Of a stretch of 32,678 nucleotides of DNA, positions 4,090 to 32,177 are shown piece by piece; the first letter of the stretch is position 1, and every line of letters begins with the position of its first letter. Source of the stretch: Coleofasciculus sp. B1-GNL1-01 (GTDB lineage Bacteria > Cyanobacteriota > Cyanobacteriia > Cyanobacteriales > Coleofasciculaceae); the NCBI GenBank assembly GCA_040220235.1, contig JAVJTO010000038.1; one strand, 5' to 3'. The notes under the pieces were generated by a model. The model was not told the DNA's origin and made no database searches. It saw only the letters and a program-made list of their open reading frames with translations. A program made the position numbers and the translations under genes.

Positions 4090-4416
4090 ATGCAAGTAAA
4101 CGAAACTATTTGGTCTGAAGTGGAGCAGCAAATTGCCAAAGATGCTTTTGAGAAAGCCTATCAACGAGAAACGAATGCTTTGATTACACAGGTGCGGGAA
4201 TACGCCAGTGGAATTACTGAACTTGATGCGGTTTGGCGTCTGCACGATTTTTTGAGTGCAAGGCGATACGATATTGATGGCAAGTACGACTATGACTATT
4301 CTGCTCTCTTGTTTCTTTTCGCTCGGTTAGTCAAAGAAGAGTGGCTAAAGCTGGAAGATTTGAGCGGTTTAGATCAGAGTAAACTGGCTAAAATAACTGC
4401 CTTAGCTCGGATGTAA
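4090..4416 (+). CDS. frp: Fluorescence recovery protein
   Basis: 108 aa; WSEVEQQIAKDAFEKAYQRE, WRLHDFLSARR, DGKYDY; directly after ocp. Confidence 0.95.
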   Translation: MQVNETIWSEVEQQIAKDAFEKAYQRETNALITQVREYASGITELDAVWRLHDFLSARRYDIDGKYDYDYSALLFLFARLVKEEWLKLEDLSGLDQSKLAKITALARM

Positions 4417-4822
4417 CGTTATTTGGTTGGGCTGAACCTTGTTATTTGTCATTTGTCATTTGTTCCCTATTCCCTGTTCCTGATTAAAAGAATTAACACA
4501 GGGATTCAATTGTTTCCTACACCCCACACCCTAACGATATCTCAAGTAGCTACCCGCCCCTTCAGGCTTGACAGTTTAGCGTGACGCGATCGCATTTAGC
4601 ATTTCCACAACCTGATCACCTCAGCTATTGTGCTGATTGAGAATCCGCGATTCTACCCTGTCCGATACCGCACCCGTTCGGTTAGCCTCGAAGAGACAAT
4701 CACCAGGATAAATAAAAATTTGCTAGCTATAGCGATAGACAACGAATAGGGGAATGATTAAAATCGAATCTAAGGACGATTCGTTCCTGTTCCCTGATCA
4801 CCGCGAGGGAGTTACGATCTGC

Positions 4823-7800
4823 ATGAATAAAAACGGGTTAATTCTGGGTGCGCTTAGCTTTGGGGTGGGTTTTGGGCTGAGTTTTTCAGTCGAAAGAGAT
4901 ATCAAACGCGCCGCGTTAACGGGACTGATTACACTCCCAGCTACGGCTACGGGAGTTGCTGTTGTTGAATATCGACGTAAGCGACAGGTTTGTGATACTT
5001 TATCTGGGCTGCAAGCACAAGTTGCGGAACTTGAACAACGCGAACACCAGCTTAATCAATCTTTATCTCAGCTACAGAATCAAACTCAAACCCTTGATCA
5101 GTCTATCGCTACTGCAACCACAGAAAAACAACAGGTAGACGCCAGTCTCAATACTGGGCAAACTGAATTAGAGCAGCTACAAACCCAAGTGGCAACTCAG
5201 CAACGCCACAAACAAGAGTTAGAGCGAGCGATCGCAAGTCTGACACGTCAAAAACAGGAACTCGAACAAGACTCGGCGCAACTTCACACCCAACTCCAAG
5301 CGCGACAGGATCAAGAAACGACACTGAATTATTCCCTCAGCGCAATTGCGGCTGAAAAACAGCGTGTAGAAGCGAATATCGCCTCTCTAAATGATGAATT
5401 TAATCAATTGCAAACTCAGGTGGCTGAGGAAGCCAAACGACAGGCAGATATTGAGCAAGAACGGCGGGAATTGGAGCAACAGCAGCATCAATTAACGTCA
5501 ACGTTAGCTCAACTCCAAGACCAAATCGCCGCCCAAGAGATTCAACTCCAAGAACAGGCGGAGTTGACAGCTCAAAACCAACACCTTGAGCAAGAAAGAC
5601 AACGCCTGCATCATCAAATTGGCAAGCTTCAACACCAGGAAACCGATTTAAATCAATCCCTGGCGAGAATTGCTGCTCAAGAACAACAAGCCCAAGAAAA
5701 TCTCAATTTATACCAGATACAACTCAATCAACTCCAAGACCAAATTGCGGCACAAGAAACTCAAACGTCACAACTGAGTCAAGAGTTGGCAGATCTGGAA
5801 CAGCAGAGACATCAGTTAGAAATCTACATCTCGAATTTAGAGAGCCAAATTGATACGTTAGAGCAGGAACGAACTCAGCTCAATCAGTCTTTGACAACCG
5901 TTATTGATCAGCAACAGGATGCAGAAAATAGCCTGAATGCCTTACAAACGGAAATCTCTAGTCAACAGCAGATTAAAGCGCAACTGACTCAAGAATTAGC
6001 AGCACTGGCGTCACAAAAAGAGCAGTTAACCGAACAACGGCGACAACTTGAGATTCCCCCGCAGCCAAATCCAGACAAACCTATCTCTGTTGATATCCCT
6101 AAAAAAGCACAAAAATCAACCGCGTCACCCTCTATATCAAGCCGAACATCCCAGGGGCAAATAACGGATATTGACGTTGATTTCATGAATGCTAAATACA
6201 CAAAACACCTCTGGGAAGAGCAAATATTACCGCATTGGTCTCATCGCGATCGCCCGACTGGACAGAGATTTATGGGTAGCATTCGCATCGAACGCACGGC
6301 TAGCGATCAATTGCTCGATATCGTGGGTCAAAACTTGCGGCAACTTGACCGAGTAACTTACAATTCGCTGCATGACGAATTTTACGAGTTGGAGCAAAAT
6401 TGGCTCAAAGTTCTCACCTTTGCTCTCTCCGAATATGCCTATTACTATTCCAGCGAACGGTTTTGGCAAGGCTTCTGTGAGCGGTTAGAAATTCATCACA
6501 ATCAAGGGGTAGAAAATACCCTGCGTCAAGTTGTCGATGAAGGGATTAATTTACTCGGTTTAGTCCGGGCGACTGGCGGATACAAATATGTTTCCACCTT
6601 ATGGTTACAAAGTGGCGTTCCTGAACAAAACTTGGGTCACTTTGCCCAACTGGTTCAGGAAATTGCTGACGATTATGGTTGGTGGGAACTGGCTCACACC
6701 CCAGCGGCAGATCTGTCCCCAGCGCTACTCAATTTTTGCCAGGAAAACCATCCGCAATGGGGTACATTGATCAACTTCCTCAACGCTAGCTATTCTGAGA
6801 ATGGAGAGACTGAACCTATCTCCGGACAACTCCTTCAAGGTATCGCAATTGTTGCCCAAGAACTAGAACGTCAAGGTGTTTCTCCCTCGGCTTTGCAGAA
6901 TGAACATCAGCGAGAAGATCTGTTAGGGAGTTATTACTTACCCCATAATTTCTTCCTGCGAAATTGGAACGCTCTGATTCAAGTCTTAACCCCAAAAACG
7001 GGTTCGGGTCAGAGTCGAAGTTTGGTACGTCGGCGTAGTCAGCCCCTAGTTCTTAGTTTAGATGTTATTGATACGGGAAACACGCAACTGATACTCCCGG
7101 AGCAAACCTTATGGAAACCAGAATGGCGAGATCTGCGGGACACTTACTGTCAAATTCCGGAAGCGAATTGGGAGGACACGATTCCCAGAGTTGGAGATTT
7201 AGAGATTCCCGAACTGGCAATTGATGTCAATCAAGCATCGGAAGATTGGAGTTGTCAACTATTAGACCACAATCGAAAATCCTTGCTCAAATGGCATTAT
7301 GCTGGGATTACCCGTGACTTCCCCTGTCTGGTATTTGATGCCGTGACAGGCGATCATCTGCCGTTAAATCTGCCTAATCCGACGATTATTGGTGTCGAAG
7401 AGATTATCTGCTTCACTCCAAAAGAGTTATCACTCCAATTTGCCCATGGAATTGAGGTTTTAGATAGCTGTATTCCCTCGAGTATTCGTGGCTGGCGAGG
7501 TCAACAAATTGCGCTAACCGCCCCGGAATCGTCTATTGTATTAACGGTAGCGGAAACGGAGCAATCCCAACTGATTCGCTGGAGGTTAGCGAAAGCGGAA
7601 AAGCCCGTCTTGCGAGGGCTAAAGTTGAAAGGGAAAAAGGCGATTTATATAGAAGTACCTACGTTTTGGTATCCTCCTCTGGAGCAACCCCTAACTCTCA
7701 ATGTGCTAATCGAAAATATTACAGAGAAATTTATTATTGCGCGAACCATTGAAACTCTGTATCCTAATAATCGCTGGGTGGCTATTCCTCTAAACCAGTG

Positions 7801-9061
7801 GATTACTGAACCAGGTAGCTACGAAGCTAGTTTCTGGTTTGAGACTCAACGCTGGTTCTATCGGTTTGAGGTGCAATCGAATTATCAGGTAGATCAGGTT
7901 CCTGAGTTGAATAAACTCAAGATTCGCAGTCGTTCTGGGTTGACTGAAACGGATTTGCCGATTAAGCATGATGCACCAGAAAAGTTTTGGGCGGAAACAA
8001 TTACAATTGAGGGGTTATGGACGTTAGAGGAGGTTGTTTTATTTCTGTCTAATCGAGAGGATAAAATTCCCTATCATTTACAAGCCGATGCGTCAGGCTC
8101 TTTAACCATTGATTTGCCCACTTTACATGAATTACTCCCCGAATCGAACTGGTATGCGCTGGACTATCAACGATTGGGGTTAGAACCGCAGCGATTGCTG
8201 GAAATGGATAGCTCCCAGCAAGAGGTGAGTTGGACGTGGGGGAATCAAGGGATTCAACTTTCGGGATTGCGCTCAGGGGATTTGTATACCTTGTCGTGTT
8301 GGAATTTACTCTTACCTGACACAAAGCCGAGAGAAATTAAAATTCCTTTAGGAACCGAACCGACAGGAATAATTAAAGTTCCGTTAGAACTACCAACAGG
8401 AATTTATTATATTCAGCTTTTGAGTTCTCAGCAGTTACCCCAGACTCTGGGATGGTGGTGTGGAAGCAATCAATACGATCTACCGGAAGACACGAATGAG
8501 AATGAGGCGATGGAAAATTACTGCTATACGATTCTGGATCAGGAACCGACGCCAAACTTTATCGAGGCGGTCAAAAAACTGAATCCAGATTTCGATATCC
8601 AGCAGATACAAGCCGGAATTGCTAGCTTAGAAGAACACCGCTATAATTTCCCTGAATGGTTAAATCCCGATGCCTTAGTTAGCAAGCTTAAAGGACTGTT
8701 AAACGTTTTGGAATTACCACCAGTACAACCTATCCAGCCGCCCGACTCACCGCCGCCTGTAGAACCGAAGCCGTCAGCACCGCCGCCTGTTAGCGGAACG
8801 TGGTACTTGGTTAATGTTCGCCACAAGAAACGTGATTTATTTTTGAGATGTCTGAATGCGGTGATTGAACAAAATAAACTGCAAGACCTGATTTTAGCCG
8901 TGGAAACCCCTGATGATTCCGTGTACGAAGATATCGTTTTACTAAATTTGGCTAATTTCAAAGCAGTACGAACCCCTATTCAAAGCATTGAATCCTGTCA
9001 GCGAATCGAACCGAAACCCTTACCCTCCGCCCATGTCAATCGTATGTTGGGAGCCAGATAA
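4823..9061 (+). CDS. Large defence-associated protein: two N-terminal hydrophobic segments, long coiled coil, unknown central domains, Pro-rich linker, C-terminal NusG-NGN-like domain
   Basis: ORF 4754-9061; ATG 4823 follows GAGGGAG. Hydrophobic LILGALSFGVGFGLSF and AALTGLITLPATATGVAVV, ~350 aa of Q/E/L heptads, SEYAYYYSSERFWQGF...KYVSTLWLQSGVP block, PPVQPIQPPDSPPPVEPKPSAPPP linker. Stop overlaps the next start (TAATG). Confidence 0.8.
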   Translation: MNKNGLILGALSFGVGFGLSFSVERDIKRAALTGLITLPATATGVAVVEYRRKRQVCDTLSGLQAQVAELEQREHQLNQSLSQLQNQTQTLDQSIATATTEKQQVDASLNTGQTELEQLQTQVATQQRHKQELERAIASLTRQKQELEQDSAQLHTQLQARQDQETTLNYSLSAIAAEKQRVEANIASLNDEFNQLQTQVAEEAKRQADIEQERRELEQQQHQLTSTLAQLQDQIAAQEIQLQEQAELTAQNQHLEQERQRLHHQIGKLQHQETDLNQSLARIAAQEQQAQENLNLYQIQLNQLQDQIAAQETQTSQLSQELADLEQQRHQLEIYISNLESQIDTLEQERTQLNQSLTTVIDQQQDAENSLNALQTEISSQQQIKAQLTQELAALASQKEQLTEQRRQLEIPPQPNPDKPISVDIPKKAQKSTASPSISSRTSQGQITDIDVDFMNAKYTKHLWEEQILPHWSHRDRPTGQRFMGSIRIERTASDQLLDIVGQNLRQLDRVTYNSLHDEFYELEQNWLKVLTFALSEYAYYYSSERFWQGFCERLEIHHNQGVENTLRQVVDEGINLLGLVRATGGYKYVSTLWLQSGVPEQNLGHFAQLVQEIADDYGWWELAHTPAADLSPALLNFCQENHPQWGTLINFLNASYSENGETEPISGQLLQGIAIVAQELERQGVSPSALQNEHQREDLLGSYYLPHNFFLRNWNALIQVLTPKTGSGQSRSLVRRRSQPLVLSLDVIDTGNTQLILPEQTLWKPEWRDLRDTYCQIPEANWEDTIPRVGDLEIPELAIDVNQASEDWSCQLLDHNRKSLLKWHYAGITRDFPCLVFDAVTGDHLPLNLPNPTIIGVEEIICFTPKELSLQFAHGIEVLDSCIPSSIRGWRGQQIALTAPESSIVLTVAETEQSQLIRWRLAKAEKPVLRGLKLKGKKAIYIEVPTFWYPPLEQPLTLNVLIENITEKFIIARTIETLYPNNRWVAIPLNQWITEPGSYEASFWFETQRWFYRFEVQSNYQVDQVPELNKLKIRSRSGLTETDLPIKHDAPEKFWAETITIEGLWTLEEVVLFLSNREDKIPYHLQADASGSLTIDLPTLHELLPESNWYALDYQRLGLEPQRLLEMDSSQQEVSWTWGNQGIQLSGLRSGDLYTLSCWNLLLPDTKPREIKIPLGTEPTGIIKVPLELPTGIYYIQLLSSQQLPQTLGWWCGSNQYDLPEDTNENEAMENYCYTILDQEPTPNFIEAVKKLNPDFDIQQIQAGIASLEEHRYNFPEWLNPDALVSKLKGLLNVLELPPVQPIQPPDSPPPVEPKPSAPPPVSGTWYLVNVRHKKRDLFLRCLNAVIEQNKLQDLILAVETPDDSVYEDIVLLNLANFKAVRTPIQSIESCQRIEPKPLPSAHVNRMLGAR

Positions 9062-9972
9062 TGGATTTTGATCCGATTACCCGATTGCTGAGTAATCACC
9101 GAAAACCGGGTAATCCAACCATACCGACAACGTTAACCAAACAGCAGCTTGTGTCCCTGTTGCGATCGCGTCTCTCCCCGAACCAGTCGTCAGAGGGGTT
9201 AACCCAGAAGATTCAGGAGGAGTTGAGGGAGTTACAAGCCCAAGGTGAGGTCTTAGCTGGGAGCAGAAATCGTTACAGTATGGCTCCTCCCACGGTCTTA
9301 GCTTTGGCGCGAGATAATGTGAATGGGTTGCTCTTTCGAGGCGATCGCGCTTATCTAGCGTTGGCTCACCAAGCCCTGAAAACCGAGCAACGGGAAGATG
9401 AATTACGCATTCGCCCGAAGGTACATGGCTTTAACCGCATTCGCAACCGCCTACAGCAAGTTGGGATTCGCTTATTAACGGTTGCTGATAGCATTGAACA
9501 ATTACCCTTACCTCGCCCGCCCTCGCCAGCGGTTTTGCGCTCTCCCTGGTTCGTCAACCCCTTTACTGACGGCGGGATGATTTGCCACTATGTCCCTCAA
9601 CCCGACAGGTCTCAGAAAGAGCGTTGGCTACCCGCAAGTTACCAGAAATTGTCCGATCAGACCTTGCTACAGCTTCCCACAGGAGACTATCTCTGGTTTG
9701 CCGATCGCGCTTTCTATGAGTTAGAACCGGATGTAGCTATCTTGGCGATGTTCTACCAAGACAGGGAGGCGGGATGTCCCCTGAAAATTCAATGGGATGA
9801 ACCTCAGGGGAGACTCAATCTGGCTGGCGTGATTCTACCAGGGACTTATGCTCGATGGCTCTGGTGTCTTTCGGAACCGGATACCCAACGGTATAGAACT
9901 CGATCGTTTCAATCAACGAACTACCCCCTGGTCAAGAAAGCCTTTGAACGCTTGGGATGTATTTTGGTATGA
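9061..9972 (+). CDS. Hypothetical protein, middle gene of the helicase operon
   Basis: 303 aa ORF coupled on both sides (TAATG at 9059-9063, ATGA at 9969-9972); possible winged-helix N-terminus (ELRELQAQGEVLAGSRNRY). Confidence 0.75.
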   Translation: MDFDPITRLLSNHRKPGNPTIPTTLTKQQLVSLLRSRLSPNQSSEGLTQKIQEELRELQAQGEVLAGSRNRYSMAPPTVLALARDNVNGLLFRGDRAYLALAHQALKTEQREDELRIRPKVHGFNRIRNRLQQVGIRLLTVADSIEQLPLPRPPSPAVLRSPWFVNPFTDGGMICHYVPQPDRSQKERWLPASYQKLSDQTLLQLPTGDYLWFADRAFYELEPDVAILAMFYQDREAGCPLKIQWDEPQGRLNLAGVILPGTYARWLWCLSEPDTQRYRTRSFQSTNYPLVKKAFERLGCILV

Positions 9973-12900
9973 GTCATTACCTTGACCCCATTGCTGCGGT
10001 GGAACAGCCCCGCCAAGACTTCATTCGTTACTTGCTCACTGCTTATCCCCTGCGAGACCCGCATCTGCGTTACGGACTCGAAGAGCAGCTTAAACAACCC
10101 GGAACTATTTGGCAGTATCCCTACTTAGAAGGTTCGCAGCCCTATCAAACGACCAAAAGCGTTTCAGAATTAGTCAAACTGGGTGTCCTACATCCAGATG
10201 TGAAACACTTGTTTACACCAGCTCAACGTCCGCTCTACAAACATCAAGAGCAGGCGGTGAGAGCGGTAGTTGAGCAACAGCAAAATATCGTCGTTGCGAC
10301 GGGAACAGGATCGGGTAAAACAGAATGTTTTCTCATCCCGATAATGAATCGACTGCTTCAGGAAGGAGCCACCTCGCTCAGGTCTAATCCAGGGGTGCGA
10401 GTTCTGATCCTGTATCCCATGAATGCTCTGGTCAATGACCAAGTTAAGCGTTTGCGACAGTTGCTTTGTCAACAACAGCAGCCTCTGATTCGCTTTGGCT
10501 TCTATACAAGTCGAACTGAACGTGATCCTCAGAAGGCACGGCAAGCCTTAAAAGAGGAGCTTGAAGCCTACGATCCCCAGGAACTGCGGAAACTATTTAC
10601 AGCCGAGGATCTACAATCGCCTGATTTTAACCGACCGGAATCTTTAGTTCAAGAAGCCATCCGAAAAATCCAAGACATTCAAGCTATTTCTAGGGAAGAA
10701 ATTTGGGAAAACCCACCCCAAATTCTGCTAACCAACTACTCAATGCTAGAACATATGTTGATTCGCCCGAAAGAGCGAACCTGTATTTTTGAAGCATCCA
10801 GAGATAGATTCCAACTTCTAGTGGTGGACGAAGCTCATACCTACGATGGCTCTACGGGAACAGAAGTTTCGATGCTGCTTAAACGACTTAAGGCAGCAGT
10901 CGGCATCGAAACCAAGGGTAAACTTCGCTGTATTGCCACGAGTGCCAGTTTAGGAGACAAATCCGTCGATTCCGCCGTTATCAAGTTTGCCGAAGAATTA
11001 TTTGGCGAATCCTTTAATCCAGTCGTAGTGCGGGGCGATCGCGTTGAGGCAACTCAGCGTCTCGGACATCCTTATCCTCTACCGGATGAATTACAAGGAG
11101 AACCCCTGTGGGAATATATTCAAGCCTTAAAACTCCCCTCACTGAATGCTCCTATAGAGGAATGGTGGAATGAATTAAGTTATTTTGTTCCAGTTGAGCA
11201 ATTACAGAGGGCTGGAAATAAAGTTGCAGATATCGAACAACCCGAAAATCAAGTTCGTGCCTTTCTCTGGGAAGCGCTTAAGCAACATCCCCTATTTCAT
11301 CGACTGATTAATAGTCTGCGTCAGAAACCCCAACCGTGGCACGTAATCGCTCGTTCTGAGCAACTGTGGGGAATAGAACTGCCAAAAACCTTGGATGGTA
11401 GTCTTGACCCTGGAGTAGAACAACCGCTAGAACGGGCATTAGCTTATTTGGTGCAGCTAGGAACCCTAGCCCGCCAACATCTTGATGATTTACCCCTACT
11501 TCCGGTTAGATTGCACTTGCTGTTTCGCAGTATTGAAGGGCTTTATGCTTGCACCAATCCTCAGTGTCCAGGAGCTGTACGCCACCCCAACTATGCAGGA
11601 CGTCCCCATCGTTATGGACAACTATACCTGAGTGAGAAAAGTACTTGCGAACACGAAACCTGTCAATCTCCAGTATTGGAACTGGCAAGTTGTCGTAAGT
11701 GCGGACAAGCTTATAGCCTTGCCTGTCTAGCTCCCAAGAGTCGAGGAGTAGGTCTATTACAACCCCTTCCCCGTTCTTTAGAAGCAATTACCAACAGTAA
11801 ACAAGTCTATACCTTAACCGTGGGAGCATTAGACAGCGTAACTGAAGATGAAGCCATCGAAGTTCCCGAAGACGATGATACGTTTGCTCAACTTGAAGGA
11901 ACTTTCATGATTCGTCACAAAACGGATCGATCAGGGTGGGAAGGTATAGCTATGCCAGAAGCCGTAACGGCTACGACATCAAAAGGCGAAGTTGCTCTCA
12001 AATGGCATATCCCGCCCGTTCCTTCCCAGACGAAAAAAGCAGATATCCCGCCATCTTGGGCTGGAGGATATTTATCACGATGTCCTGCTTGTGGTGCCAG
12101 AGATAGCAAATCTCCATCGTTGGGACGCTTTGTTTCCTATACGGATGCCCCATTGGAGGTCATGCTTGATAGCTTGTTCGAGTTACTGCCGGATTCAGAA
12201 CCCAACTGGCGTTCAGAACAACCGACTAAACGCAAGTTACTGACCTTCTCAGATGGTCGTCAGGATGCCGCTTTCTTTGCTTCTGACTTTCAACGAACCC
12301 ATACAGAGACACTATACCGTCAGATGGTGTGGCAAGCATTCCAAGATGTTAAGGATGAAACCAACACGGCATCTGTTAAGCAAGTTGAAGACCAGTTAAC
12401 TAGAAAGTTTTTGGACATTTCTCTGCCTCATCCTGATCGTCGCTCAGAACTACACCACCTCAGCTACGTCGCCAATGACCCCGATGAACTGATTGAGGAA
12501 AATCGCAGCAAGAACCCCAGAGACTGCCGCGATCGCGCTCAGAAACGAGCCAAGGAGCTGTTGCTGCGAGAATTTGGTCTGCCTTCGGCTCGTCGTTTTT
12601 CTCTGGAGGCTTTAGGACTACTCTCGTGTCACATCGACATTCAAGATCGACGTTTACCTGAAGCCGTAGCCCAGCGATTTCAAATTTCTCCTCTGGAAGC
12701 CAAAATATGCTTACGAGGCTTAACTAATATTATGCGTCAAGCAGGTATTATTGACCTGCAAGGAGCGTCTGATTACTTCCCAGAAACAGGGGGTGTAGAA
12801 GACGTGCGACCGGGAGCATTAGATGCTCAAGGGCGATCACGTACTCGGTTAAAGCTACAAAAAGACAAGGGTGAAAAGGATGTCGTGTCTTTTCTGTGGC

Positions 12901-15900
12901 GCACCAATGACAAAACGGGAGAACCCACCAAGCGCCAAAACCATCTGGTTACTTACTATCGGCAGATTTTGGGTGAGTCTATACGTCGCGAAGACATGAC
13001 TTGGCTGTATCAACAGCTTGTCAGTAGTGGCTGGCTGACTAAGTGTGCTAAAGGAGGACATCAACTGAACTGGGAACTCCTGAATATCGTCGCCACTGAC
13101 CGCCATTGGTATCAATGCCGTAGTTGCCAACAGCGTTTTCACATTCCAGATTTAGGGGAAATTTTCGAGACAACAAAACTAGGGTTTAAGCATTGCCCTG
13201 CCTACAGATGCGAGGGTTCACTGCAACCGCTAATCATTGACCCAAAGCCAAATCCTCAACAAGAAGCGGATCACTATCGCTACTTAATTCGGCAGCGATC
13301 CATCACACCCCTGCGATCGCAAGAACACACCGCTCAACTTAGTGTCGTCGAACTGGAAAAACGAGAAAATCGCTTCCGCCAAGGCAAAATTAATCTGTTG
13401 AGTAGTTCGACCACTCTGGAGATGGGGGTGGATATTGGCGAACTACAAGCCGTCGCTCTACGCAATTTCCCGCCCCATGTTAGCAATTATCAGCAACGGG
13501 TGGGACGAGCTGGACGACGCACTGATGGGGTTGCTGTCACTTTAATGTACGGACAGCGTCGCCCCCATGACCGCTTCTACTTTGACCAACCCACCCAACT
13601 CATTGCTGGCAAAAATCAGATCCCCAAGCTCAATCCCCAAAATTTTCACATCCAACAACGTCACATACGAGCCGAATTATTAGCAACATTTCTGCGAGAG
13701 CGACGGGGAACAGGGGCAGAAAACATCCAGATGGCGGAATTCCTGGGTTTTTCCTGTGAGGATTTTACCCCAGTTCAAGACTCTAATCTCCCCCCGAATG
13801 CACTGATTATTGAACTACGAGAATGGTTAAATTCCCAAACCGCTCAGGAACTAACGGGACAGTGGTTGCAGCATCTAGGTAATCACCAAGCCGCACCCGA
13901 AATTTTGGCGAAATTTGGCAAGGATTTAAGTGACTTTGAGCAGAGTCAGCTACAGGATTGGAATCAACTCGCAGAAGTTTTGGCAGAACTAGACACCGAT
14001 ATCCGTGCGACTAAAGATCGAAAACTGCGTCGGGAAATGGAGTATAAGCGAGATCGGATCGAAGAAGAACTCGAGAAAGTTGCCAAACGTCGGCTTCACG
14101 ATGAACTGGCTCAAGCTAGCATCCTTCCCATCTACGGCTTCCCGATTGATGTGGTACGCTTACTCACAGGTCAGAGTAACAAGTACAAATCCTCTCAAGG
14201 CAGACACCGACTAGAACGCGATCGTCGTTTGGCGTTGGGCGAATATGCCCCAGGTCAAGATGTTGTCGTCGATGACCGAGTTCACCATAGTATTGGTGTG
14301 CTTAGACCGGAAAATCTAGAACACCAGTATTACTGGGTTTGCCAAAACTGTAATTATTTCGATAAGTCAAAACAGGAAAAAGAACCCTTTACCGAATGTC
14401 CAGAATGTAAGTCCTCACCCCAGACTCCCTCAGAACAGAAAATGAGAGAGTACGTAGTACCCAAAACGTTCACAACAGATTGGAGCCAACAACCAAAAGT
14501 TACGCCCTATACTAAACCGTTGCGTCAACCAACTTCACAGGTTTTCTTGGCTCAGGAGGGAGATAATCCAGAATCGCTTGGGCAACCTCATTGGTATCAA
14601 CTCACTTTCAGTCAAGGAGGGCTATTCTTCCTAGCTAACCAAGGTCCTTTAGTGAACGGACGTGGTTTTAAGAACCGAGGATTTGCTATTTGTAAAAGCT
14701 GCGGTTGCGACCTGAGTACTCAATTACAAGAGCGTCAGCGTTCAGCTACCAGTAAGAAGAGTCGTCGCCAATCGAAAACAACCAGCACTTCATCCTCTCA
14801 AATCCCTCATAGCCATCCCATTACTGGAAAACCTTGTTCGGGTAAGTCCTACAGTTTACTGCATTTAGGTCATGAATTTCGCAGTGATTTGCTCAAAATT
14901 CGCTTTGCTCCTGCTCTGATTGGTAACCGTTTACTATATGAACCCGTCATTCATTTTGGTGACAGTCGCGTTATTTCATCATCCATCGCAGAAAATTCCA
15001 CTGAGACTGTTACAGGCATAGGCTTTTGGCATTCACTGACTTATGCGCTTCTGGCTGCTGCTGCCCAAGTCATTGATGTTCCGCGTAGTGAGCTTGACGG
15101 ACTCTTCAAGCCAACAGAAGGAGGGAGCGGTTTGGCTGAGATTGTTATCTATGATAATGTTCCAGGGGGAGCCGGATATAGTAAGCGGATTGCACAAGAG
15201 TTTCAGGATATGCTGCAAAAAGCCGATGAACTGGTTGAGTCTTGTAGCTGTGACAGTAGCTGTTATGACTGTCTCAGGACTTATTCCAACCAAATGTTTC
15301 ACGCTGAGTTGAACCGTCATATTGTGGCAGACTTTCTCAAGCCTTTAGTCGAGCAAGTGAAACCTGATCAGGAACTTCAGGTTTTTGCCCCCCATGCCAG
15401 TCGCATCAGCTTAACCAAAATGGCTGATCGTCTTCGCCGTCTTTGCCGCATGGCTGGTTCGGCTAGCCTGCTTTATCTACCACAGCTCAATGATGGGTTA
15501 GGTTTGGATCGGGGTTCGCCGATGCCGTGGTTAGGATTGTTAGCGGATGCTGTCAACTCCATGCACGACAGTAGCACAGCTTTAGAGTTAGTGGTCAATC
15601 AACTACCAAAACCGAATTCAGATGCAAATCGCGCTATACGCAAGCGCTTGTATCAGTGGATAGACCAAGGTTTACTCAAGCTGTACGAGTCATCCTACGA
15701 GGCTTTACCGATTTTGTGTTTCAGCACTCAGCAGCCGCATCGGATTGCACTCAAACTTCACCAGCGCTCTGATCAGGACACAGTAGAATGGTTTCAAACC
15801 CAAAGCGCTGAAGGCGTCGAGACAGTCGAGAGTCGATTACAAACGCTGCGATCGCAAGCTAGACTTGTCCCAGCTTCAGAATTGGCAGATCCAGATACCA

Positions 15901-16385
15901 TTGTCGTCTTCCCAGAACCTAGCTGGGGTGAACTGAGTTTGCCACAACTGCGACAGAAACTGGGAATAGACGGTATTTTGGCAAGTCAGGTGAAGCAGGT
16001 ATTCTATCGCGATCGCTACTTGAATGGTCAAAGGGCAAACTTCCTGGCTGAACTCTTGCAAGGGGAGGGACTCTCGGCTAATTCTCAGGTAACGATTTTA
16101 ACGTTGGAAACGTCACAATCTCCACCGGCTTCTGAACTCAAAGCTGAATTAGAAGCAGCGCTGATTGGACTGAAGGCGATAGAAATTCAACCTAAAGTTA
16201 CAGTTCAACCCCGCCATCGACGCTCTGACTTTCCCCATGCACGAGAATTAGAAATCCAGGGACATGATCAGCAGAAGTACAAGGTTATTTTTGATCGAGG
16301 ACTTGACTTTCTGGAAAAGGTGGAAAATCGCGAAACGTATCGTATCAAACATCCCACCTATATAGCCATCATCAGGCAACAATAA
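9969..16385 (+). CDS. DruE/YprA-like SF2 DEAH helicase with Zn fingers, DUF1998 and C-terminal PLD-like domain
   Basis: Q motif LYKHQ, Walker A TGTGSGKT, YPMNALVNDQ, TNYSMLEHML, DEAH, ATSAS, FSDGRQDAA, EHTAQ, STTLEMGVDIG, NYQQRVGRAGRR; several CxxC pairs; DUF1998-type YDNVPGGAGY...CSCDSSCYDCL. Confidence 0.88.
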   Translation: MSHYLDPIAAVEQPRQDFIRYLLTAYPLRDPHLRYGLEEQLKQPGTIWQYPYLEGSQPYQTTKSVSELVKLGVLHPDVKHLFTPAQRPLYKHQEQAVRAVVEQQQNIVVATGTGSGKTECFLIPIMNRLLQEGATSLRSNPGVRVLILYPMNALVNDQVKRLRQLLCQQQQPLIRFGFYTSRTERDPQKARQALKEELEAYDPQELRKLFTAEDLQSPDFNRPESLVQEAIRKIQDIQAISREEIWENPPQILLTNYSMLEHMLIRPKERTCIFEASRDRFQLLVVDEAHTYDGSTGTEVSMLLKRLKAAVGIETKGKLRCIATSASLGDKSVDSAVIKFAEELFGESFNPVVVRGDRVEATQRLGHPYPLPDELQGEPLWEYIQALKLPSLNAPIEEWWNELSYFVPVEQLQRAGNKVADIEQPENQVRAFLWEALKQHPLFHRLINSLRQKPQPWHVIARSEQLWGIELPKTLDGSLDPGVEQPLERALAYLVQLGTLARQHLDDLPLLPVRLHLLFRSIEGLYACTNPQCPGAVRHPNYAGRPHRYGQLYLSEKSTCEHETCQSPVLELASCRKCGQAYSLACLAPKSRGVGLLQPLPRSLEAITNSKQVYTLTVGALDSVTEDEAIEVPEDDDTFAQLEGTFMIRHKTDRSGWEGIAMPEAVTATTSKGEVALKWHIPPVPSQTKKADIPPSWAGGYLSRCPACGARDSKSPSLGRFVSYTDAPLEVMLDSLFELLPDSEPNWRSEQPTKRKLLTFSDGRQDAAFFASDFQRTHTETLYRQMVWQAFQDVKDETNTASVKQVEDQLTRKFLDISLPHPDRRSELHHLSYVANDPDELIEENRSKNPRDCRDRAQKRAKELLLREFGLPSARRFSLEALGLLSCHIDIQDRRLPEAVAQRFQISPLEAKICLRGLTNIMRQAGIIDLQGASDYFPETGGVEDVRPGALDAQGRSRTRLKLQKDKGEKDVVSFLWRTNDKTGEPTKRQNHLVTYYRQILGESIRREDMTWLYQQLVSSGWLTKCAKGGHQLNWELLNIVATDRHWYQCRSCQQRFHIPDLGEIFETTKLGFKHCPAYRCEGSLQPLIIDPKPNPQQEADHYRYLIRQRSITPLRSQEHTAQLSVVELEKRENRFRQGKINLLSSSTTLEMGVDIGELQAVALRNFPPHVSNYQQRVGRAGRRTDGVAVTLMYGQRRPHDRFYFDQPTQLIAGKNQIPKLNPQNFHIQQRHIRAELLATFLRERRGTGAENIQMAEFLGFSCEDFTPVQDSNLPPNALIIELREWLNSQTAQELTGQWLQHLGNHQAAPEILAKFGKDLSDFEQSQLQDWNQLAEVLAELDTDIRATKDRKLRREMEYKRDRIEEELEKVAKRRLHDELAQASILPIYGFPIDVVRLLTGQSNKYKSSQGRHRLERDRRLALGEYAPGQDVVVDDRVHHSIGVLRPENLEHQYYWVCQNCNYFDKSKQEKEPFTECPECKSSPQTPSEQKMREYVVPKTFTTDWSQQPKVTPYTKPLRQPTSQVFLAQEGDNPESLGQPHWYQLTFSQGGLFFLANQGPLVNGRGFKNRGFAICKSCGCDLSTQLQERQRSATSKKSRRQSKTTSTSSSQIPHSHPITGKPCSGKSYSLLHLGHEFRSDLLKIRFAPALIGNRLLYEPVIHFGDSRVISSSIAENSTETVTGIGFWHSLTYALLAAAAQVIDVPRSELDGLFKPTEGGSGLAEIVIYDNVPGGAGYSKRIAQEFQDMLQKADELVESCSCDSSCYDCLRTYSNQMFHAELNRHIVADFLKPLVEQVKPDQELQVFAPHASRISLTKMADRLRRLCRMAGSASLLYLPQLNDGLGLDRGSPMPWLGLLADAVNSMHDSSTALELVVNQLPKPNSDANRAIRKRLYQWIDQGLLKLYESSYEALPILCFSTQQPHRIALKLHQRSDQDTVEWFQTQSAEGVETVESRLQTLRSQARLVPASELADPDTIVVFPEPSWGELSLPQLRQKLGIDGILASQVKQVFYRDRYLNGQRANFLAELLQGEGLSANSQVTILTLETSQSPPASELKAELEAALIGLKAIEIQPKVTVQPRHRRSDFPHARELEIQGHDQQKYKVIFDRGLDFLEKVENRETYRIKHPTYIAIIRQQ

Positions 16386-27026: not shown

Positions 27027-28577
27027 TTGCTTAGATGGAAAAATAAAGGGTGTCCATTAGAGTTATCTCGTGAACTTATAGAATCTGATGAAAGATTATT
27101 GGCAATTAAACAAGAACAACAATCCAACGAAACCTTAACAAGCTATACTGTTAATTCAATAAAATCTGTCAGAACTGAAATATTATCAGCTCAAGAACAG
27201 ATAGAATGCGTTGAGAAAGAAATTGATTCTTTAATTCAATCAATTTTTTCTTTAAGAGAATCTTTCTTGTCGTTATCATCAAATAAATATACTGAAGAAA
27301 AATTTTCATCAGGAGATTCCTCAAAAATACCTAATCTATCTTTACAAAAAATACTTATTTATTTAATAAAGCAGGTTTTGGCAGATATAAAACAAGCTTT
27401 CTTATATATAATTAACTATTATCTAGACAAACCCATTATAACAGCTATAACATTAATATTAGTTATTCCTATTTCGTTATTTTTGAGTTGGAAATTTAAT
27501 GGCTTTTCAACTATTGGCTTACTCATTATCGCATTGGTATATTTTTCAAAAAAAATAAATTATATTTATAAAAGGCATCAGCGAACCTGGAAAGAAAACT
27601 CGGCTAAAGTTGAAATAGATCGGCAACAAAAATTAAAACAAGAGTTTGAGGAGCGTATTCATCAAGAACGAAACAAAATAGAGGCATCTTTACAGGAGTT
27701 TGAGGTACGCTTACAAGAACGTAGAAGAGATTATCAAAAACTTAGAGAACGTAAACAAAAACTTGAAGCGTACTTGTTACAGGAGGAACAAGAACTTACT
27801 GAACTTGAACAAGTACGTCAACAAAAGTTAGATGAATATCAACAAAAACTTGATGAATTAATCTGGCGAGAGAAATGCCGTAGAAATGAGTACCTATTAA
27901 AGTTAGAAAAACAAGTTCAAAAATGGCTGGATGACGATATAGAACGCCTTACTCATGAAGGCATGAAAAAATTAAAGATAATATCTAATAGCGATTATGA
28001 CTATGATCAAGTTAATGCTTTAAAAACCGAAGAAGTTCGGGTAGTTATTGGTGTTACAGAAAAAACTAAAAACTTTGAAAATATTCTTGTTGATAGTGAC
28101 ATTAACTCTTTCACAGAATCTTCTGAAAGCCAAGAAATATATATAGATCAAGATGATTTTGAAAGTGAAAAAAGTTTTGATGGAAAAAATAGGAAGTACG
28201 GAGTCTATGGATTTGTAGCTATATTCCTATGTGCCAATTTTTTTAGTTATTATAAATGTTATTATAATTTTATACGAAGAAAAACTGTCGATGAAGAAAT
28301 TGCTGAATATATGTATGATAGTATTGTCTCTATAAAAATCCAAGAAAAATCTTCTGTAAGATTAAAAAATGAACAGCAAAAGAATGTATACAGGAAACGA
28401 TTATTGATTACAACAAATGACGGAAAAGTTGTATGCTTTAATTTCTCAAGAAATAGGGTAGAAAAAAAATATTCTATACGTTTTTCTCAGATCGAAGAAG
28501 CAGCAATAGCTATTCGAGATATGTTAAGTCAAAGACGCATAGATAAAACGTTTACTGAAAATTTAGACTATACCTAG
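27027..28577 (+). CDS. AT-rich hypothetical membrane/coiled-coil protein, possibly the C-terminal part of a broken gene
   Basis: 516 aa ORF with two hydrophobic segments (IITAITLILVIPISLFLSW, IGLLIIALVYF) and an E/Q/K coiled coil; TTG start without RBS, and the frame is open further upstream. Confidence 0.65.
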   Translation: MLRWKNKGCPLELSRELIESDERLLAIKQEQQSNETLTSYTVNSIKSVRTEILSAQEQIECVEKEIDSLIQSIFSLRESFLSLSSNKYTEEKFSSGDSSKIPNLSLQKILIYLIKQVLADIKQAFLYIINYYLDKPIITAITLILVIPISLFLSWKFNGFSTIGLLIIALVYFSKKINYIYKRHQRTWKENSAKVEIDRQQKLKQEFEERIHQERNKIEASLQEFEVRLQERRRDYQKLRERKQKLEAYLLQEEQELTELEQVRQQKLDEYQQKLDELIWREKCRRNEYLLKLEKQVQKWLDDDIERLTHEGMKKLKIISNSDYDYDQVNALKTEEVRVVIGVTEKTKNFENILVDSDINSFTESSESQEIYIDQDDFESEKSFDGKNRKYGVYGFVAIFLCANFFSYYKCYYNFIRRKTVDEEIAEYMYDSIVSIKIQEKSSVRLKNEQQKNVYRKRLLITTNDGKVVCFNFSRNRVEKKYSIRFSQIEEAAIAIRDMLSQRRIDKTFTENLDYT

Positions 28578-28611
28578 GAATGGAAATTAAATAATATTCA
28601 GTCTAGGGGAT

Positions 28612-28728
28612 CACTATCGTCTAGGAGTGGCGGTGGAATGGGCGGTGGAATGTTTGGATAATCCGGCAACAGTAAGTGACGCTCCAGTATTATCCGGATT
28701 TGTGCTGGATTTAAGCAAAATTTGGTGA
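28612..28728 (+). pseudogene. 3' fragment of a second Uma2-family gene
   Basis: HYRLGVAVEWAVECLDNPATVSDAPVLSGFVLDLSKIW* with an internal 12 bp duplication (GGCGGTGGAATG); no in-frame start. Confidence 0.65.
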
Positions 28729-29056
28729 ATTTTAAGGATGCGATCGCGAACATATTTCTCAAATTCTCAATTCAAGAACTGACAATCTTTAATGACAAAA
28801 GTTTTAGGGTTTATCCTAATTCGCAAATTTTCCAATCTGGTTATGAATCTACTCTCACTCCTTTAATATCTATAGCTGTAAGACAAGGGTTTAGTCAATG
28901 GCATTATCAATAGTCACAGATGTAAATCAAGAAAATCCTGAAGAACTGGTTAATTTATGATGCTCAAGGCAATGCTGCTGTTTATTAAAATTTCTAACTT
29001 CCATTTATGGTAGTCTAGGGGGGATTACTTCCTTGCTCACGCTAAAAGATTGACTT

Positions 29057-29398
29057 ATGCAATTAGAAGACTACTTAGACTTCATTACCACTGATGACAT
29101 TCGTATTAAAGGCACGCGGATTGGAATTGAAACCATCCTGTACGAATACATCTATCGCCGCCGTACAGCCGAAGAAATAGCCCAAACTTATTCCTCGTTA
29201 ACTCTAGAGCAAGTTTATGCTACGATTCTTTACTACCTGCATCATAAAGAAACAGTAAGCAACTATATAGGCAACTGGTTAGAGTATTGCCTACAATCCG
29301 AACAAGAGCAGGATAAAAATCCTCCCCATGCTGTCGTCAGACTGCTGAAATTAAAAGCAGAGCAAGAACCAGGAAAAGTTGCTCTCAATGAAAATTAA
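29057..29398 (+). CDS. DUF433-family antitoxin
   Basis: IRIKGTRIGIETIL...TAEEIAQTYSSLTLEQVYATILYY motif. Confidence 0.88.
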   Translation: MQLEDYLDFITTDDIRIKGTRIGIETILYEYIYRRRTAEEIAQTYSSLTLEQVYATILYYLHHKETVSNYIGNWLEYCLQSEQEQDKNPPHAVVRLLKLKAEQEPGKVALNEN

Positions 29399-29750
29399 AT
29401 ACTTACTCGATGAAAACTTACCCTCTTTCTATCAGGTACAGCTTCTACGCCTTCAATCCAATTTAACGGTTTGGATGATCGGCAATCCGGGACTTCCACC
29501 CAGAGGAACTAAAGACCCAGATATTCTACTTTGGTGTGAGCGAAACAACTTTATCCTAGTGACCAGCAATCGTAGTTCAATGCCTGTACATTTAACGGAG
29601 CATTTATCTCAAGGTCGCCACATTCCAGGCATCTTTGTGCTTCGTCCTAGAGCAGAAATTGGAGAAATTATTGACAATTTAATTTTTATTGCCTTAGCAG
29701 CAGAAGAAAATGAATTTCAAGACCAAATTATTCACATCCCTTTAAGGTAG
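29388..29750 (+). CDS. DUF5615/VapC45-like PIN-domain toxin
   Basis: KYLLDENL, GTKDPDIL, ILVTSNR, HIPGIF; overlaps the DUF433 gene. Confidence 0.85.
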   Translation: MKIKYLLDENLPSFYQVQLLRLQSNLTVWMIGNPGLPPRGTKDPDILLWCERNNFILVTSNRSSMPVHLTEHLSQGRHIPGIFVLRPRAEIGEIIDNLIFIALAAEENEFQDQIIHIPLR

Positions 29751-29895: not shown

Positions 29896-30444
29896 TCAGT
29901 TTTTCCACGACTCATCTAGGACAAAATCATGGATATTTTTCAGCACAAAGCCGCTCTCTTCTTTAACTAAATCTCCTGTACAGGAAATAGGAAACCGTTC
30001 TTGATAGGCTTTTATAGCAAGAATGTACTCATGGTTAAACAACTCCATCTTAATTTCCCGAAGTTGATCACATACTACACCAAAAATGACAATCGTTCCG
30101 CTTAATTGGTCAGCATTAGGAGCATGAATTTGCCTAACGAATCCCGGAATCTTTATATTATTAGCTGTGGCAATAAGTTCGCTAATAATCTCAAGTTGAG
30201 AACGATTTTCTATTGTTTCCAGTGTTTCCAAAATAACACTCATAGAAACCGGAAACCCCGGTATGTCCTGATTTAGGGGTAACAGAATAGTTGCCGACTC
30301 TCCTCCCTCATTTTCTTGTATCCAAATTGAGGCTTTATCCTGCAAATGGTTTTGTTTATGCCAGCCGTGATTTTGCAAGTAGTTGGCTACTTGTTGAGGT
30401 CGGATTGATTGCAGAATATTGATATCCTTTACGGTAACATTCAT
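29896..30444 (-). CDS. Hypothetical protein, partner of the DUF4365 gene
   Basis: MNVTVKD...VANYLQNHGW; ATG 30444 overlaps the upstream TGA (ATGA). Confidence 0.7.
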   Translation of the reverse strand: MNVTVKDINILQSIRPQQVANYLQNHGWHKQNHLQDKASIWIQENEGGESATILLPLNQDIPGFPVSMSVILETLETIENRSQLEIISELIATANNIKIPGFVRQIHAPNADQLSGTIVIFGVVCDQLREIKMELFNHEYILAIKAYQERFPISCTGDLVKEESGFVLKNIHDFVLDESWKN

Positions 30445-30944
30445 AGAGCTTCTCCTCTGGCGATACATTCCATAAGACTTGTTAGGGCATTCACCGTAAA
30501 TCTATTTACTCTAGGAATAGATACAGTTACGGTTTCCTGATTCTCTGTCGATGCTTCTCCAGCTAGGGATATCCAGTAACCACAACGTTTGAGACAGAGC
30601 TTATCTTCTGATTGATATAACCAGTCATTAATGTTATCAGGTACTACAACAACCACGAGGATTAGAGGTGGATATTGCTGGGAAACTCTCAGTTATTCAT
30701 AATTCTTAACTTTGAGTGGATACTTCAGATGATTTTCATCTAGAATTGCTCTTGAAGTACATTTGAGTTGAACGTATAGCTGAGGATTCCCCATTATTCC
30801 CTGCACACCAATCCCTGTAAAGATCAAGTCAATTCCCAGTTGATCTAAGGGCGTAGTTGTTCTCTGGAACGAGTAACCTGCGGCTGAGGCGATCGCATAA
30901 ACATAAGCATAGCTGAATTCTTCTTTTTGGATGTTAATATTCAC
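30441..30944 (-). pseudogene. DUF4365-like PD-(D/E)XK nuclease interrupted by an in-frame TAA
   Basis: KEEFSYAYV..., DQLGIDL, VQLKCT, KNYE*LRVSQQYPPLILVVVVVP..., CGYWISL; both ORF halves are in one frame with the stop at 30693-30695. Confidence 0.8.
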
Positions 30945-30983: not shown

Positions 30984-32177
30984 ATGTCCCTATCCCAGCA
31001 GTCTAGCCAATCCCGCCCCATATACCTGGACTACCACTCTACCACCCCCACTGACCCCAGAGTGGCAACCCAAATGCTACACTACATGACTACCGCCTTT
31101 GGTAACGCTAGCAGCATTGACCATACTTATGGAGATGAAGCCGAACAAGCTGTCTCCCAAGCCGCAACTCATATCGCTAACTTAATCGGATCATCCGCCA
31201 AGGAAATTATCTTCACCTCTGGCGCAACTGAAAGCATTAACCTCGCCCTCCAAGGATTCGTTAGACTATTCCATAGTAATACCTCAAAAATACCCCGCCT
31301 TGCTGTCTCCCCAGTGGAACATAAAGCCGTTTTAGACACCTGCAATACCCTCGCCAAAAAAGGATTAGCCGAAATCATTAATCTTCAGGTTGACTCCAAA
31401 GGTAGACTCGACTTGGATTATCTGGAAAACACCTGTAAAAACGGCATTTCCTTGCTGTGTGTTATGGCAGCCAATAACGAAATTGGCACGATTTATCCCA
31501 TCCAAAATATCGGACAAATTGCCCAAACCCACAGAATCCCCTTCCTCTGTGATGCATCCCAAGCCGTCGGAAAAATTCCGATCAATTTTCACGACTGGGG
31601 GATCACCTATCTAGCCATCTCCGCCCATAAACTCTATGGACCCAAAGGTTCAGGCGCATTAGTGGTGCGAAAAAAATATCCCCTAGAACCAATTCTCTGG
31701 GGTGGAGGTCATCAGAACGGTATGCGATCGGGTACACTTAATGTTCCCGGTATTGTCGGTTTAGGCGAAGCCTGTCGTCTGCGTCAGTTAGAAATGACCG
31801 AAGATGAAACCGCGATCGCATCCTCTAGAGATAAACTCCAAACCCTGCTGCAAGACAGCATTCCCGACGTCGTTATTAATGGCGACACGACTCACCGTCT
31901 TGCTGGGAATCTGCATATTTCTATTCCTGATATTCCCAATAGTGCAGTGATTGCTAGAATCCGTTCCCAACTCGCCATCTCCACCGGTTCCGCCTGTACG
32001 TCGGGGGTTGAAACACCATCCCATGTACTGCGATCGATAAAGTTATCGGATAATTTAATAGAAGGGGCATTGCGTATCGGTTTAGGCAAATTTACAACAG
32101 ATACAGAAATTCGTCAAGCCGCTGAAATTTTGTCAACAGCCGTTAGCAAAATTCGTCAAGCTATTGATGGAAATTAG
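30984..32177 (+). CDS. Group I cysteine desulfurase (IscS/DndA-like)
   Basis: IYLDYHSTTP, FTSGATES, EHKAV, NNEIGT, PLP site SAHKLYGPKG, RSGTLN, catalytic STGSACTS. Confidence 0.92.
   Translation: MSLSQQSSQSRPIYLDYHSTTPTDPRVATQMLHYMTTAFGNASSIDHTYGDEAEQAVSQAATHIANLIGSSAKEIIFTSGATESINLALQGFVRLFHSNTSKIPRLAVSPVEHKAVLDTCNTLAKKGLAEIINLQVDSKGRLDLDYLENTCKNGISLLCVMAANNEIGTIYPIQNIGQIAQTHRIPFLCDASQAVGKIPINFHDWGITYLAISAHKLYGPKGSGALVVRKKYPLEPILWGGGHQNGMRSGTLNVPGIVGLGEACRLRQLEMTEDETAIASSRDKLQTLLQDSIPDVVINGDTTHRLAGNLHISIPDIPNSAVIARIRSQLAISTGSACTSGVETPSHVLRSIKLSDNLIEGALRIGLGKFTTDTEIRQAAEILSTAVSKIRQAIDGN

Follow-up and report, generated by a model that had tools for sequence, protein, structure and literature searches.

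In a 32,678-nucleotide stretch of contig JAVJTO010000038.1 from Coleofasciculus sp. B1-GNL1-01 (assembly GCA_040220235.1; the whole stretch is hereafter the window), three adjacent plus-strand genes constitute a conserved cyanobacterial module built on the helicase DruE, and the sequence evidence indicates that this trio is probably a Druantia-type anti-phage system. Gene 1 (4823-9061, +; an open reading frame of 1412 amino acids, aa) encodes a DruH-like partner with an N-terminal hairpin and coiled coil and a C-terminal NusG N-terminal (NGN) domain. Gene 2 (9061-9972, +; 303 aa) encodes a winged-helix protein that appears remotely related to DruD of type I and DruL of type IV, and gene 3 (9969-16385, +; 2138 aa) encodes the helicase. 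According to the first-pass annotation of this DNA, the three genes are coupled where they overlap at TAATG and at ATGA; both overlaps are present. A public protein collection contains exactly these three proteins and not the 2142-aa form of gene 3 that begins at an upstream ATG; among named proteins, the closest belong to Coleofasciculus (98% over the searched part of gene 1).

The helicase and the conservation of the trio

By family profiles, its solved relative and its position in a tree, gene 3 is a DruE, that is, a YprA-family SF2 helicase with Zn motifs and DUF1998. Its motifs are intact (Walker A GSGKT at 114 and DEAH at 287), and the MrfA Zn-binding/DUF1998 region lies at 1690-1769. 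Against the PADLOC models it scores 792 bits for DruE1, 731 for DruE3, 559 for DruE2, and 505 for DruE4, with the next family at 114. Since genuine DruE members reach 1033, 1636, and 2208 bits on their own models, gene 3 is close to none of the modelled types. The best solved relative is the E. coli-type DruE 9tu7 (E = 6e-94), and the PLD of that structure also aligns with the gene 3 tail (E = 5.6e-12), a C-terminal PLD-like module (15366-16382, +) in which D2015-R2016-Y2017, H2090, R2092, D2109, and G2111 are conserved. DRY and H2090 occur in all 35 of the 35 tails long enough to align, and R2092 in 34. Residues of these same types form the lining of the nuclease site in PaDruE, with the counterpart of PaDruE D1740 not placed. 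A nuclease-like domain on the helicase had been put forward as a novelty; the domain is there, but type III-A DruE is already known to carry this tandem PLD module.

Conservation of the arrangement was assessed in 46 loci gathered through gene 2, a collection that by design misses trio-type loci without that gene. Gene 1 lies upstream in 45 of the 46 and gene 3 downstream in 42, and all three stand in order in 41, a degree of conservation far beyond chance. Three of the five incomplete loci are near contig ends; in the other two (L042 and L046), no helicase lies within 9-10 kb. The spread is patchy, with matches in 28 of 401 genomes of the class, and among 14 records, six are full-length plasmid copies. 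Recurrent neighbours across the 46 loci include a WYL-family gene beside gene 1 (19 loci), AIPR (7), integrase (7), caspase-helicase (5), and E2-E1-JAB (3).

The two partner proteins

The conserved core of gene 1 starts at Met455 with a helical N-terminal domain (6185-6994, +) that carries the invariant residues R482, E537, W548, and Q596-x-G598-x-P600. In an AlphaFold model of residues 455-1412 (pLDDT, the predicted local distance difference test, 83.5; predicted template modelling score, pTM, 0.49), this helical head is followed by a long predicted run of Ig/FnIII-like beta-sandwiches (residues 743-1213; 7049-8461, +), a short helical domain of about 75 residues (8492-8713, +), a Pro-rich linker, and a predicted NGN fold (8792-9058, +). 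Ahead of the core, two hydrophobic segments in residues 5-48 (4835-4966, +; Kyte-Doolittle 1.78 for residues 5-23 and 1.70 for residues 30-48) are predicted to form a membrane hairpin, which is common to long homologues and not found in short ones. A Gln/Leu/Glu-rich coiled coil comes next (residues 50-410; 4970-6052, +); its heptad periodicity exceeds that of 1000 of 1000 shuffles, and its length differs among homologues. Short homologues begin at the position equivalent to Met455, and the core motif occurs in 105 of the 120 homologues listed, 50 with the long N-terminal module and 55 without it.

The NGN model resembles Aquifex NusG (Z 12.8; root-mean-square deviation 2.3 Å; 90 residues; 23% identity), and the top 14 rows of the comparison are all NusG, Spt5, or RfaH. 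Gene 1 shares the predicted NGN fold with these proteins but differs in having no KOW domain, as it stops directly after the NGN, and in carrying the fold behind a defence protein; Pfam gave no match for this domain. The first-pass annotation treated the membrane anchor, the coil, and the NusG-like domain as gains that define the variant. All three are predicted in gene 1; nonetheless, hairpin and coil (together, the stalk) occur in only 8 of the 46 loci and the NGN in at least 16. Because both are optional add-ons, they likely tune rather than define the system.

Type III-A DruH, in the accessible portions of its published descriptions, is laid out as a helical head, six Ig-like domains, and a helical end, and the gene 1 model shares this plan of head, Ig-like arm, and helical end. 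The DruH C-terminal domain is large and helical, whereas its counterpart in gene 1 has only those roughly 75 residues; gene 1, for its part, has the NGN and membrane stalk that DruH lacks. Head motifs are colinear between the two (ALSEY/AEWF, FW/W, and YVSTLWLQSGIP/L.SL..EGG.P), and 6 of 36 N-terminal head fragments of gene 1 match one DruH model region (E = 0.0014-0.014), while none match DruF, DruB, or DruC. Taken together, the layout and the motifs make it quite probable that gene 1 is DruH-like by descent, i.e., homologous to DruH, although the sequence signal is weak. Other searches returned little. For gene 1, nothing beyond coiled-coil noise came from Pfam, NCBIfam, and PADLOC; profiles of genes 1 and 2 run against PDB sequences found only coiled coils or nothing, and ESM Atlas yielded no usable match for gene 1 and matches of at most 0.81 for gene 2. 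Profile-profile comparison of gene 1 with DruH, DruF, and the 1140-aa partner of Ralstonia-type DruE was not significant. DruH 9tud is not among the structural rows listed for the gene 1 model, its presence in the compared libraries being uncertain, and one DruH model was uninformative, matching none of 301 genomes and none of the controls. The "chromosome partitioning ParA/SMC" names attached to gene 1 homologues derive from the coil and were dismissed.

Gene 2 is a conserved protein (115 matches among homologue searches) with an N-terminal winged helix (residues 1-76) and alpha/beta domains, modelled at pLDDT 92.5. Foldseek found nothing for this model at E <= 0.001, VIA-align matched the winged helix alone (best Z 9.6), and Pfam, NCBIfam, and PADLOC returned nothing useful. 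The kinship, which the first-pass annotation overlooked, emerges from profiles. Among 1.84 billion proteins, the gene 2 profile finds three of 333-338 aa (E = 1e-6 to 2e-4) that match DruD models over most of their length (E = 4e-11 to 5e-13); aligned back to gene 2, they span 260 columns, at 98.8%, a partly circular result, the gene 2 profile having found them. Two of 14 scanned homologues match DruL, one at E = 2e-5, and among 31 further homologues, one matches DruL and three, beyond the profile-found proteins, weakly match DruD. Gene 2 compared with nine cyanobacterial DruL sequences gives E = 2.6e-4, against 0.32 for the reversed control, and a type II DruF model is matched over its C-terminal 300 positions by one DruL. 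These comparisons suggest that the trio and types I, II, and IV all have the same DruD/DruL-type module ahead of druE.

Some gene 2 homologues (in L034, L035, L036, and L046) carry an N-terminal extension of about 100 aa where gene 1 is short, and in L035 and L036 a 205-aa gene follows gene 2. A resemblance between the NGN and this kind of extension (E = 0.11) was dismissed.

Several observations weigh against a Druantia-type defence system or against the kinships on which it leans. The window's own genes 1 and 2 match no Dru model. The E of the DruH EGGxP motif is replaced by Q in gene 1, unrelated models matched gene 1 fragments about as often as DruH did (PD-T4-9_A 3, REase_II 3), and the gene 1-DruH profile-profile score of 20.1 (E = 0.058) is exceeded by 2 of 40 column shuffles. 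HHalign gives gene 2 and DruL a probability of only 42%. Many trio copies are broken, and the PLD tail is absent from two loci (L019 and L094), and one study in E. coli could dispense with it, the accessible parts of the published studies being split on its importance. Finally, YprA-family helicases also serve in DNA repair, according to the literature in its accessible part. As relatives of MrfA/YprA are repair helicases and some trio copies are plasmid-borne, the trio could instead be a mobile repair or plasmid-maintenance module in which such a helicase works with accessory factors; yet the size, Zn insertions, and PLD tail of gene 3 are those of the defence branch, and patchy spread, decay, and defence-island neighbours also speak against this alternative, which we consider very unlikely.

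Placement among the Druantia types

Within Druantia, gene 3 would fall in a clade that is already catalogued. Table S1 of Bell et al. 2025 (PMC12458937), as accessible, lists WA1_16685 and SD81_040835, together with a PCC 7420 helicase, as Druantia III-B-like. Gene 2 homologues adjoin the first two as the next locus tags (WA1_16690 in Scytonema and SD81_040840 in Tolypothrix). In a 26-sequence FastTree phylogeny (1550 columns), 14 trio helicases, including the window's, form one clade with support 1.0; the comparison set held four sequences each of type IV and of the Ralstonia type, two of III-A, one of type I, and one unclassified, with no non-cyanobacterial III-B reference. Gene 3 is assigned to the III-B-like clade indirectly, through the trio helicases listed there and through the single clade that trio helicases form with that of the window. 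The proposal of a cyanobacterial variant thus stands, whereas that of an undescribed system does not extend to the helicase: the core is known, and what appears new in the literature searched is the constant third gene, the NGN-bearing partner, and the optional stalk.

Druantia III-B, as outlined in the accessible text of PMC12458937, consists of DruH and a compact DruE mostly without PLDs. The trio shares with it the helicase clade and a large partner gene preceding DruE, but differs in its third gene, in a PLD tail present in 35 of the 46 loci, and in a partner with an NGN and optional stalk, features not found in the accessible part of that source. Type III is characterized by only one partner gene; a third gene is present in 41 of the 46 loci, which were themselves found through gene 2. 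NusG paralogues are antiterminators of long operons. One could regard the trio as ordinary III-B, with DruH and DruE sufficient and gene 2, the NGN, and the stalk as dispensable passengers or expression tuners, the NGN for example serving as a cis-acting processivity factor for the 11.6-kb operon. The III-B-like label of the clade and the optional nature of stalk and NGN agree with this; the translational coupling and high conservation of gene 2 do not, nor does the two-gene, PLD-less III-B of the publication in its accessible form. We judge this explanation quite unlikely.

Type III-A (E. coli and P. aeruginosa; 9tu7 and 9tud) shares the tandem PLD tail and the DRY/HxR motifs with gene 3, but has two genes, and its DruE scores 2208 bits on its own model against 731 for gene 3 and occupies a separate branch (two III-A references). 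Type IV (DruF, DruL, DruE; PMC8565338, as far as accessible) has the same three-gene order, with a DruL-type small gene directly before druE, and type I (DruABCDE) has a DruD-type small gene, kin of gene 2, in that position; gene 1, however, is not detectably DruF, DruB, or DruC, and the DruE lineage differs from both. In the accessible literature, the DruE of types I and II ends in an inactive Vsr domain, whereas gene 3 ends in PLDs. DruA, DruB, DruC, the methylase DruM, and DruG are absent from the window and do not recur in the 46 loci, and the trio shows neither the methyltransferase plus SNF2 helicase nor the split DrmA/DrmB that mark ARMADA and DISARM.

The identical gene order and the DruL-related middle gene would also fit a type IV-like system with a strongly diverged DruF, and the N-terminal extension of cyanobacterial type IV DruL bears a weak resemblance (E = 0.0017) to the NGN tail. 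By contrast, the DruE of true type IV systems in cyanobacteria scores 1636 bits on DruE4 against 505 for gene 3 and forms a separate branch, and gene 1 has no DruF match; this reading is highly unlikely. The true type IV loci in question (L087-L091) encode DruF of 525-595 aa, DruL of 441-461 aa, and DruE4, and the NGN-like resemblance resides in an extra N-terminal segment of about 125 aa in their DruL. Separately, four two-gene DruE loci (L097, L102, L103, and L106) pair a DruE bearing an HDR-type PLD motif with a partner of about 1140-1170 aa that has no PADLOC match and 65 relatives; by sequence, they would represent another unrecognised type III-like branch.

We therefore retain the trio as a probable Druantia-type module related to III-B. 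A literature search confined largely to openly accessible papers, and thus short of most subscription journals, some supplementary files, and the journal article by Bell et al., found no description of these three genes together, of an NGN fused to such a partner, or of its stalk.

Genomic site, turnover, and neighbouring genes

One flank of the trio is frp. The other is a HEAT-repeat gene that we take from its sequence to encode a phycobiliprotein-lyase-like protein, and the trio presumably sits between ocp-frp and phycobiliprotein genes. Its guanine-plus-cytosine content (GC; 0.44-0.52) equals that of the flanks, so that composition gives no foreign signal. Within the window, no methylase, integrase, or regulator reading frame of at least 80 aa adjoins the trio; the earlier statement that no known partner stands beside it thus holds for this copy but not for all of its relatives, 19 of the 46 loci having the WYL-family gene.

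Seven of eight same-genus genomes were compared at the operon site. In one (G403) the trio is complete but its helicase has diverged, one (G404) has internal deletions, and the other five retain only a remnant, some 400 bp long, that resembles the end of gene 1. The trio has been gained and lost at one site among these seven genomes, and such turnover is typical of defence loci. In G403 (L118), identity to the window is 93.5% across genes 1 and 2 and the beginning of the helicase, while the remaining helicase is 74-79% identical or unaligned; judged from this alignment, its druE is a mosaic. Metatranscriptome contigs likewise diverge from the window near 10075. The remnant (L120-L124, in G406, G402, G401, G408, and G405) matches window positions 8640-9057, at 74-75% identity to the Pro linker and NGN; its NGN frame is stop-free in 5 of 5 genomes and the preceding part is broken. 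The remnant may encode a small NGN protein that stands alone, or it may be what is left of an older allele that decays slowly. Contigs from three metatranscriptome runs reach into the operon, spanning about 4344-11050 in X1 and with gaps in X3 (depth 4-13), with library DNA as a possible source; in run X9, the joined, operon-less form has a depth of 84 versus about 5 for the operon.

Farther along the window, a low-GC region (27027-29750; 0.30-0.32) contains a 516-aa coiled-coil/hydrophobic reading frame without family, then a DUF433 and DUF5615 pair. A 190-aa protein (29896-30468, -) matches both ends of PADLOC PDC-M02B (E = 8e-42), and beside it, at the contig end, lies a DndA/SspA-like cysteine desulfurase (30984-32177, +; E = 1e-138). 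Together they may mark the border of a phosphorothioate defence island.

Proposed mode of action and significance

Drawing on the biochemistry of Druantia type III-A, and with the accessible parts of 10.64898/2026.05.13.724313, 10.64898/2026.05.13.724758, 10.64898/2026.05.12.722862, PMC13192584, PMC13316683, and PMC11090510 as background, we propose that the system would recognise forked or single-stranded phage DNA, unwind it, and cut it with the PLD tail of the helicase. By analogy, the gene 1 core would be a DruH-type sensor in which an Ig-like arm bears a helical DNA-binding or exonuclease head; at forks, this sensor would bind or trim single-stranded DNA that lies exposed and pass it to DruE. 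DruE would load at the duplex/single-strand junction, unwind, and degrade the invader without cell suicide. Fold and kinship suggest that gene 2 would be an adaptor subunit that binds DNA, akin to DruD and DruL; as the short helical domain of gene 1 leaves little to grip DruE, gene 2 perhaps replaces the C-terminal domain with which DruH does so.

The roles of the optional parts are more speculative. The NGN might dock the sensor on RNA polymerase, aiding transcription of the long operon or siting the sensor at transcribed phage DNA; on the basis of the model, we give any binding to RNA polymerase somewhat less than an even chance. Hairpin and coil (about 50 nm if straight) might hold the long form of gene 1 at the membrane, and an internal start at Met455 might yield a soluble form. 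Joined together, these parts would describe a distinct Druantia subtype in which the NGN clamps the DruH-like sensor onto transcribing RNA polymerase, a membrane-anchored coiled coil keeps it at the envelope, phage DNA is attacked by the helicase-nuclease where it enters and is first transcribed by host polymerase, and a DruD/DruL-type subunit is the adaptor that links all multi-gene Druantia types. As a whole, this picture is unlikely.

Because profile libraries detect only the helicase, cyanobacteria probably hold more trio loci than have been counted. Work on how Druantia acts is under way in two-gene systems of enterobacteria and Pseudomonas. No role has been assigned to accessory genes in the larger Druantia types, and the trio isolates one DruD/DruL-type subunit in minimal form. 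It links Druantia types I, II, III, and IV, and its defence sensor, with an NGN fold of the NusG kind, hints that immunity and the transcription machinery are connected.

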